A DNA stretch of 62,420 nucleotides from Candidatus Magasanikiibacteriota bacterium (GTDB lineage Bacteria; Patescibacteriota; Patescibacteriia; Magasanikbacterales; UBA922), in assembly GCA_018652595.1 (NCBI GenBank), contig JABIBU010000008.1, positions 1 through 62,420 on the forward strand, in the 5' to 3' direction. The notes below the pieces were generated by a model, which was not told the origin of the DNA, made no database searches, and saw only the letters and a program-made list of their open reading frames with translations. A program made the translations under genes and the position numbers. Every line of letters starts with the position of its first letter. Positions within the stretch are counted from its first letter, which is position 1. Below are positions 15,183-32,590 of this stretch, piece after piece.

Positions 15183-15354
15183 AAAGCATTGATTTAAACT
15201 GATTTTAACCCCAAAATAACCTTATATAAATAATCAGTTTTAATCTGTATTAATCAATGCTTATTATAGCACATATTGACAAAAAGATGAATATTTTGTA
15301 TAATGTATACGTTATTTATAAGCTCAAGTGCATAAGTATTATATAAAAAACTAC

Positions 15355-15603
15355 ATGTTTTACATATATATACTAAGATTATCTAACGAAGATTTATATA
15401 TAGGCCGAACAGATGACCTAAAGAGGAGGTATAGCGAACACCAACAAGGAAAAGTGAAATCAACCAAAAATTATAGACCTTTAAAATTGATCCATTACGA
15501 AGCTTTCTCAAACAAAAAAGATACCACAAGAAGAGAAGGCTATTTAAAAACTAGCACAGGAAAAAGGATGTTAAAATTAATGATAAAAGAATCATTAAAA
15601 TAA
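15355..15603 (+). CDS. Small GIY-YIG nuclease (UPF0213-like); probable start at ATG 15355
   Basis: YIYIL....LYIG.TDDL.RR..EH..G....TK..RP..L..YE.F......RE..LK motif; promoter TTGACA-17-TATAAT at 15277-15305. Confidence 0.88.
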   Translation: MFYIYILRLSNEDLYIGRTDDLKRRYSEHQQGKVKSTKNYRPLKLIHYEAFSNKKDTTRREGYLKTSTGKRMLKLMIKESLK

Positions 15604-15685
15604 GCCGCTGTGGTGAAATTGGTAGACACGCACGACTCAAAATCGTGTGAGGCAACTCATGTCGGTTCGATTCCGACCAGCGGCA
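15604..15685 (+). tRNA. tRNA-Leu(CAA)
   Basis: GCCGCTG/CAGCGGC acceptor, CACGA-CT-CAA-AA-TCGTG anticodon arm, long variable arm, GTTCGATTC; CCA not encoded. Confidence 0.95.
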
Positions 15686-15688
15686 CAA

Positions 15689-15816
15689 GTATACACGACT
15701 CACCCACGAAGTAGAGCAGAGCTCACTTCGGGGTGTCCAGCAGTGAGCCCTGCTCTACTGCAGGACAAAATCGTGTTCCTTCGGGAGTGAGAGTTCGATT
15801 CTCTCCTCGGGCACCA
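15689..15816 (+). pseudogene. 5'-truncated second tRNA-Leu(CAA) with a 65-nt hairpin insertion in the anticodon loop
   Basis: GTATA-CACGA-CT-[15701-15765]-CAA-AA-TCGTG, UUCG variable arm, GAGAG-TTCGATT-CTCTC, CTCGGGC-A-CCA; no matching 5' acceptor strand. Confidence 0.8.
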
Positions 15817-15827
15817 CTTAAGAAAGT

Positions 15828-16793
15828 ATGAACTTCTTTGATATACTAATTATCCTACTTATCACAATAACTGCCTTACCTGCGGTTATTTTGTTATATT
15901 CCAGAAACCAAAGGAGGCACTCTTGGGAGCACAAAAATAAAAACTTAAGTTTAATCTTAGCTTTGATTTTGTTATTGGGAACGTGCATAGTCACTTATGG
16001 AAGTTTTATTGAGCCAAATTTGGTTGTTACCAATTACCAAGAAGTTGATCTAGAAAATATTGAACCCCCTATCAAAATTGCAGTGATATCAGATTTTCAG
16101 GTAGGTTATTTCAAAAAAGAAAAATACGTAGAAAAAGTAGCAAATAGAATATTGAATTTAAATCCTGACCTGGTATTTATTGTTGGTGACGTAGTGGATA
16201 ATGCTGTTTATGTAGAAGGTGAAGCAAAGTATCTAAGCCCCATGAAAAAAGTAGCTGATATTATTCCAACTTACGCCATTCATGGAAATCATGAATATGG
16301 TATTGGTGGAGGTAAGTCTATTTTAGACCCAAATTACAGGACTAGCAACGTAAGTGCTGAGACAAAAGAAATAGTTGAATCTTTTGGAATAAAATATTTG
16401 GTAAATGATCTGGAAAAAATTGCAGTTGAGGATGAGGAACTTTATCTATTTGGCGGAGACTCTATCTGGGCAGGAAAGCTGGACTATTCAGCTTTGAATA
16501 ACAGAACAGAGGACTTGGCAACCATAGCCCTCATACACAATCCTTTGGCCACTTTTCAGGCCCACAAACACAATATTGACCTAATGCTATCAGGCCACAC
16601 CCATGGTGGACAAATCAGACTACCTTTTATTGGTCCTATCGGAAGAGTAGACGACATTTTACCAGCCGAGTGGTATCAAGGTTGGAATGAATTTGAAGAA
16701 ATGAAATTTTTTGTAAGCTCTGGAATTGGTGAGTCTGGCACTAGGGCGAGATTATTTAATCCTCCGGAGATTGTGATTATGACTGTAAAGTAA
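15828..16793 (+). CDS. Membrane-anchored metallophosphoesterase (YkuE-like)
   Basis: Two N-terminal TMs; ISDFQ, GDVVD, GNHE, LIHNP, GHTHGGQ motifs. Confidence 0.9.
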   Translation: MNFFDILIILLITITALPAVILLYSRNQRRHSWEHKNKNLSLILALILLLGTCIVTYGSFIEPNLVVTNYQEVDLENIEPPIKIAVISDFQVGYFKKEKYVEKVANRILNLNPDLVFIVGDVVDNAVYVEGEAKYLSPMKKVADIIPTYAIHGNHEYGIGGGKSILDPNYRTSNVSAETKEIVESFGIKYLVNDLEKIAVEDEELYLFGGDSIWAGKLDYSALNNRTEDLATIALIHNPLATFQAHKHNIDLMLSGHTHGGQIRLPFIGPIGRVDDILPAEWYQGWNEFEEMKFFVSSGIGESGTRARLFNPPEIVIMTVK

Positions 16794-32098: not shown

Positions 32099-32185
32099 AG
32101 TAATAATTAATTACCTACTTATTTTACTAATTTTGGCTTATTTTAGCAAGTCATAGCATGTTAGGCACGACGAAGTGAATACTAG

Positions 32186-32286
32186 CTCCCAGACCAGGGC
32201 TCGCCATAAAATAGAGCTCCACTTCGACAAACTAAGTGTCCCTCACTTCAAGGCAAAAACCTGGAACCTATGCGTTAACAATCCCG
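32186..32286 (-). pseudogene. tRNA-Asn 3' remnant with a 54-nt insertion in the T-loop
   Basis: TT-GTT-AA..TAGGTT-CCAGG-TT-[32257-32204]-CGAGC-CCTGG-TCTGGGA-G. Confidence 0.7.
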
Positions 32287-32293
32287 ACAAAAG

Positions 32294-32365: not shown

Positions 32366-32371
32366 ACACTT

Positions 32372-32432
32372 GTCGTGATTCTACCAATTGCCACCCTACG
32401 GGTGGTCAGCCTTGGGCTGAAACTACCTCGGA
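32372..32432 (-). pseudogene. tRNA-Asn-like 5' remnant with a 30-nt double-hairpin insertion in the D-arm
   Basis: TCCGAGG-TA-GTT-[TCAGCCCAAGGCTGA CCACCCGTAGGGTGG]-CAATTGGTAGAAT-CACGAC. Confidence 0.7.
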
Positions 32433-32436
32433 ATAT

Positions 32437-32590
32437 AAACAAAAACACCCGTTTTAGCGGGTGTAATTAATGTTTTTACTAAGAGAAAAACTACACTCCG
32501 CTTTCGGGTGAATTATTATTACTATTATTATTTTTCACGTGTAATCTTATCATATAATTGTATTATAGCACATTTTAGCCATTTTGTCAA
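32437..32590 (-). promoter_or_regulatory. sigma70 promoter plus ribosome-mediated attenuator upstream of tRNA-Asn
   Basis: TTGACA(32590-32585)-17-TGn-TATAAT(32567-32562); alternative helices 1:2, 2:3, 3:4; terminator ACACCCG-CTAAAA-CGGGTGT plus U-tract. Confidence 0.7.
32491..32553 (-). CDS. Putative Asn-rich leader peptide MIRLHVKNNNSNNNSPESGV
   Basis: 20 codons with six AAT; ATG about 2 nt from the predicted TSS; stop codon overlaps attenuator segment 2. Confidence 0.65.
   Translation of the reverse strand: MIRLHVKNNNSNNNSPESGV

Follow-up and report, generated by a model that had tools for sequence, protein, structure and literature searches.

The tRNA-Leu(CAA) locus of this Candidatus Magasanikiibacteriota genome is probably the footprint of a small selfish nuclease-hairpin-tRNA cassette that lives in tRNA genes, its host staying viable through the tRNA that the cassette supplies. 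This reading builds on the observed anatomy of the locus, on the ancestry of its two tRNA copies, and on the recurrence of the hairpin at the same site beside related nucleases. The window, i.e., the whole stretch of DNA analyzed, spans 62,420 nucleotides, and the features discussed here are collected in Table 1. Throughout, the locus was compared with L056, a metagenome contig from a related species that represents an independent assembly.

Table 1. Features of the tRNA-Leu(CAA) and tRNA-Asn loci in window coordinates
Feature	Position	Strand	Basis or remark
Sigma-70 consensus promoter TTGACA-17-TATAAT (12/12) of the resident tRNA gene	15276..15304	+	
9-nt decayed 5' relic GCTCAAGTG of resident tRNA-Leu(CAA), positions 1-9	15322..15330	+	L056 comparison
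82-aa GIY-YIG nuclease gene	15355..15603	+	Stop codon abuts tRNA position +1
Intact tRNA-Leu(CAA), N type	15604..15686 (end 15685/6)	+	ARAGORN; Rfam tRNA 60.4 bits
Cassette-to-remnant spacer AAGTATA	15687..15693	+	Variable; AAGCAGCATA in L056
Resident tRNA positions 27-36: anticodon-stem 5' strand and loop CTCA	15694..15702	+	Matches family tRNA exactly
63-nt double hairpin insert with CA/CA repeat at its flanks	15703..15765	+	Fold, pairing, recurrence
Resident tRNA-Leu(CAA) 3' half including encoded CCA	15766..15816	+	Identity to family tRNAs
Scar downstream of tRNA-Asn	32170..32292	-	Partial tRNA-Asn copy plus ~54-100 nt of hairpin-forming extra sequence
30-nt zero-gap double hairpin TCAGCCCAAGGCTGA CCACCCGTAGGGTGG	32391..32420	-	Splits 5' tRNA-Asn fragment upstream of intact tRNA-Asn

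The locus lies between parA and a phosphoesterase gene, both syntenic with relatives, and the whole insert amounts to ~440 bp. Its intact tRNA-Leu(CAA) has the acceptor stem GCCGCTG/CAGCGGC and does not encode CCA. The remnant of a second copy follows, starting with GTATA (15689-15693), CACGA (15694-15698), CT (15699-15700), and CA (15701-15702). After the insert come CA (15766-15767), AAA, TCGTG (15771-15775), a UUCG-type variable arm (15776-15788), the T arm GAGAG-TTCGATT-CTCTC (15789-15805), CTCGGGC (15806-15812), A, and CCA (15814-15816), which together make up the rest of the anticodon loop, the 3' stem strand, the variable arm, the T arm, the acceptor strand, and CCA. An earlier note on this DNA had described the second copy, and its sequence statements were all correct when re-checked base by base: the acceptor strand of the remnant is unable to pair with GCCGCTG of the intact copy, CCA is encoded by the remnant only, and the insert has two nearly isoenergetic alternative folds (two hairpins versus one long hairpin). 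The 65-nt insert of that description corresponds to one copy of CA plus the 63-nt insert defined here. The second copy had also been called headless, which does not fully apply, since a 9-nt 5' relic of it lies upstream of the GIY-YIG gene.

Neither ARAGORN nor Rfam called the second tRNA copy. Rfam searches over 15550-15900 (gathering threshold; E <= 10) returned the intact tRNA only, plus meaningless miRNA-hairpin matches, and no intron, ribozyme, tmRNA, or Y-RNA-like model matched in this interval. The GIY-YIG gene, the tRNA, and the remnant are now all under control of the old (predicted) tRNA promoter; the promoter region is 97% identical in L056, against a synonymous divergence (pS) of ~0.5 for the flanking genes, and no terminator was found between the tRNA and the remnant. 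A lookalike of the spacer, GTATATA, occurs after the tRNA of a paralogous cassette on contig C27.

Comparison with orthologous tRNA-Leu loci, which the earlier note had proposed, identified the remnant as the old gene and the intact copy as the newcomer. The 3' half of the remnant (15766-15813) shares 94-100% identity over 49-51 nt with eight other genera of the family, all of which carry a single intact tRNA-Leu(CAA) directly after a divergent parA, at the same position as here; it is identical to G007 at 49 of 49 positions and 94-98% identical to six other genera of the family. Because of this match to the family's single intact gene at the same parA-adjacent position, the remnant is evidently the ancestral resident tRNA-Leu(CAA) gene (R type, acceptor GCCCGAG/CTCGGGC). 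In L056, the segment between promoter and nuclease gene contains GCCCGAGTG, which corresponds to positions 1-9 of the R-type tRNA and equals the 5' end of the family's tRNA. The intact copy shows 91-93% full-length identity to tRNA-Leu(CAA) of at least seven other families of the class (f90, f75, f51, f13, and f23 among them). Compared with tRNAs from its own family and order, it reaches only 76-86%; similarity between tRNAs of 83 nt is a weak phylogenetic marker. Since it is closer to other families than to its own, the intact N-type tRNA appears to be a foreign import. The two copies differ in variable arm, T arm, and acceptor strand. In G001, of the same genus, the roles are swapped: a different nuclease gene is preceded by an N-type 5' relic (GCCGCTGTG), and downstream of that gene come an intact R-like tRNA and, after it, an R-like remnant split by a hairpin. 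This role reversal suggests serial replacement.

The GIY-YIG gene abutting the intact tRNA, overlooked in the earlier note, is the common denominator of these loci. Its 82-aa product matches Pfam PF01541 (E = 2.7e-15, model positions 1-74 of 78), and residues Y5, Y15, G17, H29, R60, and E61 (with the Y15-x-G17 spacing) are invariant in 8 homologs. The protein is a predicted member of the GIY-YIG nuclease superfamily consisting of the catalytic domain only: no domain was detected besides the catalytic one, and a separate DNA-binding domain of the SegB type, which confers long-site specificity, is absent. Among solved structures, the UPF0213 proteins 1zg2 and 1ywl come nearest to it. Eight small GIY-YIG ORFs occur in the 965-kb genome, and six of these eight paralogs have a same-strand tRNA gene no more than ~100 nt away (Leu-CAA, Leu-GAG, Thr-UGU, Gln-CUG, Lys-CUU, and Arg-UCG), accompanied by tRNA fragments that hairpins have split; an estimated ~1.6% of the genome lies as close (~100 nt) to a tRNA. 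Among relatives, a tRNA or tmRNA is present within 250 nt at 21 of the best 29 nuclease loci, and nuclease copy number is patchy, ranging from 0 to 9 with the gene present in 41 of 61 genomes. Nuclease genes are linked to tRNA genes genome-wide.

The 63-nt insert consists of hairpin H1 (15703-15733), a single T, and hairpin H2 (15735-15766), the apex of the second hairpin being the reverse complement of that of the first. Folded as DNA, it reaches -22.1 kcal/mol (z = -6.5; 0/200 shuffles equally stable), and when the region is folded as RNA (z = -4.4), the anticodon stem closes a three-way junction. The alternative fold, which had been read as a bistable switch specific to this locus, arises because of the dyad symmetry of the hairpin apices and is common to the whole hairpin family. 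Nuclease homologs carrying the hairpin were found in L056 (90% identity), L054 (70%), L053/L055 (60%), L079 (59%), and L024 (48%), which represent at least five lineages, the last two belonging to other families. At all of these loci the hairpin sits in the anticodon loop of an adjacent tRNA-Leu(CAA) copy, between ACTCA and CAAAAT and with CA repeated, and has a common frame in which a CC-arm-GG hairpin is joined by a short linker to a second one. In a covariation test limited to five sequences, 98.5% of cells in the hairpin arms were paired and 9 of 27 pairs had changed on both sides, a result matched by 0 of 500 shuffles; these compensatory changes support the predicted hairpin fold. In a second nuclease clade (34-37% identity; G001 L018 and G031 L028), the module is another one, namely, the palindrome CCTGCCTGCCGGCAGGCAGG, and hairpin type appears to follow nuclease clade rather than to form one hairpin family.

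Within the CC..GG family, a 2-nt flank repeat is present at four independent sites, namely, CA in the Leu(CAA) anticodon loop and in the T loop of C27, and CG in the T loop of L056 and in the T loop of tRNA-Arg(TCT) in G258. The repeat was rejected as a universal rule, given that other hairpin types lack it or replace 8-11 nt. An anticodon stem with two hairpins was likewise rejected as a family-wide unit, homologous loci keeping only 2-4 nt of the 3' stem strand. The hairpin studied here lies on the 3' side only, 99 nt after the nuclease stop codon. In L024, L053, L054, and L079, the double hairpin is on the 5' side of the nuclease gene, and the paralogous cassette of C27 has related double hairpins on both sides. 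There, the 5' fragment and the 3' end of an old tRNA-Leu bracket a double hairpin, the nuclease gene, a new tRNA, and a double hairpin.

Related structures are found elsewhere in the genome. Partial self-copies accompany about ten further tRNAs, and hairpins split several of these copies. Of the 7 strict zero-gap GC-rich double hairpins, 5 have a tRNA within 300 nt, in agreement with the expectation of the earlier note that hairpin modules are concentrated in tRNA-gene loops. The parallel that had been drawn with the tRNA-Asn locus also holds, as the intact tRNA is flanked by hairpin-split fragments there too. The scar downstream of tRNA-Asn includes CGAAGTGGAGC and its partner CACTTCG, and no nuclease gene was found near it. 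In G002, of the same genus, the downstream partial Asn copy is present and the extra 54-100 nt insert is absent. The hairpin type found upstream of the intact tRNA-Asn also occurs beside tRNA-Arg(CCT) and tRNA-Met elsewhere in the genome.

A genome search for CGAAGTRGAGC, the motif said to be shared by the Leu and Asn inserts, gave exactly two occurrences, at 15707 and at 32226 (minus strand), both downstream of tRNA genes. As for the claim that the two inserts form one family, the link consists of the shared 11-mer and its matching 3' arm and is thin. A second shared motif, GAGCCCTGSTCT, is probably coincidental, since its copy at the Asn locus corresponds to part of a tRNA-Asn remnant (T loop, T stem, and acceptor strand) and the Leu hairpin of L056 reads GAGCTCTGCTCT. 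When CGAAGTRGAGC..GAGCCCTGSTCT was searched in GTDB representative genomes, two matches were obtained in GC-rich coding sequence with no tRNA nearby, both due to chance. The double hairpin itself is single-copy, its apex GAGC-N3-GCTC in stem context occurring at this locus only in the genome. A dispersed REP/MITE-type repeat was rejected on the grounds that no scattered near-identical genome copies exist and that CGAAGTRGAGC occurs only twice.

Could the parts of the locus have come together through independent events? In such an account, a tandem tRNA-Leu(CAA) duplicate would have decayed and later received an unrelated palindromic MITE/REP-like insertion, the GIY-YIG gene being a mere neighbor with a preference for tRNA promoters. 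The double hairpin is indeed not inside a unit bounded with the nuclease gene, and hairpin-split tRNA fragments without a nearby nuclease gene do exist, e.g., at the Asn and Met loci. However, the two tRNA copies are not duplicates, their 3' halves coming from different lineages, and no other copy of the hairpin is present in the genome. Moreover, the same hairpin family occurs at the same site beside related nucleases in six lineages, with a type that tracks the clade. We thus consider this account unlikely.

The layout of L056 is the same as that of the present locus, and its divergence allows the parts to be compared. The pS of parA, parB, and the phosphoesterase gene is 0.48-0.56 between the two, whereas the nuclease gene has a pS of 0.31 and a pN/pS of 0.14. 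The imported tRNA is identical at 83 of 83 positions, the double hairpin shows 1 change in 63, and the adjacent R segments are unchanged up to the T loop; the 9-nt head, the tRNA-remnant spacer, and the 3' end have diverged. Hairpin, anticodon stem, variable arm, and 5' T stem together amount to ~118 aligned nt, in which a single change is seen. Purifying selection thus acts on the nuclease, as shown by its pN/pS and invariant catalytic motifs, and on the hairpin, as shown by its single change in 63 nt set against the pS of the nuclease and host genes, together with the compensatory changes in its arms. The hairpin and, unexpectedly, the adjoining part of the remnant have changed far less than neutral sites. 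A pure scar model does not account for the 0 changes relative to L056 in the variable arm and 5' T stem of the supposedly dead remnant. In L056, another double hairpin interrupts the T loop of the remnant (TTCG, then CC..GG, then CGATTC), and the 3' end of this remnant has decayed.

Such conservation would also be expected if the remnant were a functional RNA, serving either as a 3' processing or stability element of the nuclease-tRNA transcript or as a guide or scaffold for the nuclease. The near absence of change over ~118 nt despite a pS of 0.31-0.56 in the coding neighbors, the lack of a terminator between the tRNA and the remnant, and the RNA fold (z = -4.4) with its three-way junction closed by the anticodon stem all point in this direction. 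We nevertheless hold a functional RNA to be about as improbable as a series of independent events, as SsnA, a hairpin-associated nuclease considered below, does not bind RNA (PMC11893778). Furthermore, the commoner layout keeps just 2-4 nt of the 3' stem strand, so that the junction is not conserved, and the 3' end of the remnant decays in L056.

That the remnant represents an attL/attR-type trace of an integrase-borne island, later deleted, is very unlikely. While integration into tRNA genes is classical, with crossover known to occur in the anticodon loop, there is no integrase at the locus, the flanking parA and phosphoesterase genes are syntenic with relatives around an insert of ~440 bp, the displaced fragment is not a copy of the 3' end of the intact tRNA, and the micro-architecture of the locus, nuclease gene included, is seen again at many tRNAs. 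The earlier note had already argued against a simple att duplication, which is borne out by the differences between remnant and intact copy and by the absence of a recombinase gene at the locus. Finally, an intron-containing, split, or permuted tRNA whose transcript loses the insert is barely credible, and so is an assembly chimera: the insert does lie in the anticodon loop and the remnant has a perfect T arm and an encoded CCA, but a genome-wide search for a GCCCGAG 5' half with D arm, which refutes the splicing and split-tRNA ideas raised earlier, found none beyond the mutated 9-nt relic 373 nt upstream of the anticodon stem, Rfam gave no intron or ribozyme match, the insert is, as had been stated, too short for a group I intron, an intact isoacceptor lies 3 nt upstream, the T loop of L056 is further disrupted and its 3' end decayed, and the same layout in the independently assembled L056 led us to reject a chimera or artefact.

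The reading that we favor, a selfish nuclease-hairpin-tRNA cassette, would account for the locus as follows. The ancestral tRNA-Leu(CAA) of this Patescibacteria (CPR) lineage, between parA and the phosphoesterase gene, would have been broken in two places. Its D-arm region (R positions 10-26) would have been replaced by a 24-nt leader, the nuclease gene, and a foreign-type tRNA-Leu(CAA), and its anticodon loop would have received the 63-nt dyad-symmetric double hairpin with duplication of CA. The old gene would then be left as a 9-nt head, a 9-nt anticodon-arm piece, and a 3' half, all transcribed from the old promoter, and the host would have kept a working tRNA-Leu(CAA) only thanks to the cassette-borne copy. 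The nuclease may have the double hairpin as its cognate partner, by analogy with the Ssn nucleases and their NTS/SRM hairpin repeats (Chenal et al. 2025, Nat Commun; PMC11893778). By analogy with Ssn and with SegB of phage T4 (PMC2330249), the nuclease, directed by the hairpin or by the loop, might cut tRNA-gene DNA at a C-purine dinucleotide of a loop, leaving the 2-nt stagger that GIY-YIG enzymes typically produce. A donor bearing the cassette could serve as template for repair of the break, with homology provided by conserved tRNA segments, and this repair would copy in the nuclease gene and its linked tRNA. Installation of the hairpin module at the staggered cut would leave the 2-nt repeat. 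The hairpin would be tolerated only in non-essential partial copies and would, for that reason, always mark a dead copy. For these steps, we infer who cuts what, whether the substrate is ssDNA or dsDNA, and in which order the events took place.

The presence of the cassette at this conserved site is sporadic, the tRNA being uninterrupted in eight genera, and the linked tRNA is of foreign type. Several observations sit less easily with the selfish cassette. The anticodon arms of the imported and resident tRNAs are the same, and the import is not obviously immune to an arm-directed nuclease; the C27 layout predicts a left hairpin, which this locus lacks; and the hairpin is single-copy, unlike the Ssn repeats. 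The order of nuclease gene, intact tRNA, and hairpin-bearing remnant seen here also differs from the commoner layout elsewhere, which is hairpin-bearing 5' copy, nuclease gene, and intact tRNA. With two different layouts, one simple insertion rule fails to cover all loci. With other hairpin types, tRNA segments are replaced and no repeat is left at the flanks.

A more far-reaching proposal, which we advance tentatively as a possibility to be taken as a whole, sees in the double hairpin a minimal DNA module, ~50-65 bp long, that would be mobile. Instead of the usual terminal inverted repeats it would have dyad symmetry only, so that both strands show the same hairpin. The 82-aa nuclease would install this module at 2-nt staggered C-purine cuts in tRNA-gene loops; nuclease, hairpin, and linked tRNA would constitute a self-sustaining cassette; this cassette would spread between CPR lineages by using conserved tRNA segments as homology arms; and resident tRNA genes would be replaced by foreign ones during its spread. 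On this view, the remnant would not be debris but would have a conserved function within the element, as a structure for recognition, immunity, or guidance.

If true, the tRNA genes of ultra-small (CPR) bacteria would be subject to routine invasion and exchange by a self-contained genetic element that ranks among the smallest known. This would explain many of the tRNA pseudogenes, tandem tRNA fragments, and contig breaks that metagenome-assembled genomes show at tRNA loci. The cassette would also offer a route for horizontal tRNA gene replacement and give hairpin-directed single-domain GIY-YIG nucleases a natural role as mobile-DNA engines. The present locus is of particular value because its resident and imported tRNAs differ, so that donor and recipient sequence can be separated base by base; in addition, the sister species provides a selection test for each part, and the hairpin site recurs across families.

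A full-text literature search found no description of a tRNA-nested GIY-YIG/hairpin cassette, but several known systems share some of its traits. The double-hairpin elements or GC clusters of fungal mitochondria are GC-rich, ~30-70 nt long, and located in or beside structural RNA genes of an AT-rich genome. They are organellar, and their likeness to the hairpin described here is one of description; no dedicated nuclease is known to be linked to them. In the REP/REPIN-RAYT and IS200/IS605 systems, short palindromic DNA modules are recognized as hairpins by a small nuclease or transposase encoded beside a copy of the repeat. Such hairpin elements are also raised in the discussion of the Ssn paper (PMC11893778). 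They differ from the present case in relying on HUH-type tyrosine chemistry rather than on GIY-YIG chemistry, and they are not known to target tRNA loops or to carry a tRNA.

In phage T4, SegB is a free-standing GIY-YIG homing endonuclease of the tRNA gene cluster that is reported to cut a tRNA gene region, leaving 2-nt 3' overhangs, and to promote its own co-inheritance with flanking tRNA markers (PMC2330249). It resembles the present system in being encoded by a GIY-YIG gene among tRNA genes, and its co-inheritance with markers is analogous to the imported tRNA. Unlike the bare catalytic domain found here in a cellular CPR genome, where partial tRNA copies and hairpins are integral to the locus, SegB is a multi-domain phage protein and is not known to leave tRNA fragments or to have a hairpin module.

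Together with SegB, the Ssn nucleases (cd10448) are the closest published systems, and they resemble the present protein in size and domain make-up; its nearest solved structures belong to UPF0213. Ssn proteins, a class of ssDNA cutters of biotechnological interest, are single-domain GIY-YIG nucleases flanked by cognate hairpins and cut next to them, and their hairpin-gene-hairpin layout was called IS-like by the authors (PMC11893778), in whose paper tRNA has 0 occurrences. In both cases, the nuclease is a single GIY-YIG domain of ~80-95 aa without a DNA-binding domain (~94 aa in the Ssn family and 82 aa here), and Ssn genes are flanked by cognate hairpin-forming repeats of 20-50 nt that differ from one homolog to another. 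In contrast to the Ssn repeats, which are dispersed in tens to hundreds of copies, the hairpin described here is single-copy, double, and dyad-symmetric; it resides inside the loops of tRNA gene copies, and its cassette carries or duplicates a tRNA.

Besides the CC...GG double hairpin of the tRNA-nested cassettes, which combine a small GIY-YIG nuclease gene with a tRNA and the hairpin, the genome carries a second double-hairpin family, 30 nt long with zero gap and built on the core CAGCC-TTG-GGCTG. Three of its copies adjoin tRNA genes (Asn, Arg-CCT and Met); the remaining two are distant from all called tRNAs and may mark other structured-RNA genes or be free copies. At window 32366-32450 (minus strand), 5' of tRNA-Asn, the sequence may represent the 5' part of a tRNA-Asn copy (TCCGAGGTAGTT...CAATTGGTAGAA) that the 30-nt double hairpin interrupts.

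Copies of the 30-nt zero-gap double hairpin with the CAGCC-TTG-GGCTG core (C, other contigs of the same genome)
Position	Strand	Locus
window 32391-32420	minus	tRNA-Asn
C17:2268-2297		
C25:96273-96303		
C3:97161-97190		
C25:19422-19451		

A possible third family consists of hairpins whose loop, CGCTAAAGCTA, is constant while their GC-rich stems vary; such hairpins occur in several copies around the tRNA-Arg(TCG)/GIY-YIG locus (C21:12700-13260, minus strand) and also in the same-genus genome G001 (L018:1120-1150). Partial tRNA copies are also present upstream of the intact tRNA-His(GTG) gene, where two degenerate copies (C18:38965-39125), 60 and 33 nt in aligned length, retain 93% identity; the BLAST table showed no nuclease gene at these copies. 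Furthermore, tRNA-Ile(TAT) and tRNA-Val(TAC), whose sequences are repeated by hairpin-split partial copies, coincide exactly with contig breaks (C15 end/C10 start, C13 end/C24 end), and tRNA-nested cassettes probably fragment the assemblies of such genomes.

In genome G031, the GIY-YIG ORF at the tRNA-Leu(GAG) locus (L028:1501-1780) lacks a stop codon of its own and runs about 40 nt into the tRNA gene, so that cleavage by RNase P would shorten the mRNA within the ORF. In the present genome, the Leu(GAG) cassette is followed after about 100 nt by an RNase P RNA gene (C27:39075-39200), recognisable by its GAGGAAAGTCCGGAC signature, which contains a small hairpin, tcccgatttaatcggga, similar to the tRNA-Ile insert.

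The region between parA and the tRNA at the main locus (window 15183-15354) is about 97% identical to that of a sister-species contig (L056) and about 90% identical to that of G001, despite a synonymous divergence of about 0.5 in the flanking genes. This comparison indicates that conservation extends to something besides the consensus (12/12) sigma-70 promoter; candidates are a parS-like site and a divergent promoter for parA.

Finally, two longer GIY-YIG paralogs without tRNA linkage (C23:18800-19260 and C3:62600-63010) have inverted repeats of the GTCATCCCGAGC...TCGAGGGATC type on both sides, and this repeat is also present in an unrelated metagenome contig with a nuclease homolog (L054:7010-7045). 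The arrangement of these two paralogs resembles the classical hairpin-gene-hairpin layout of Ssn systems.
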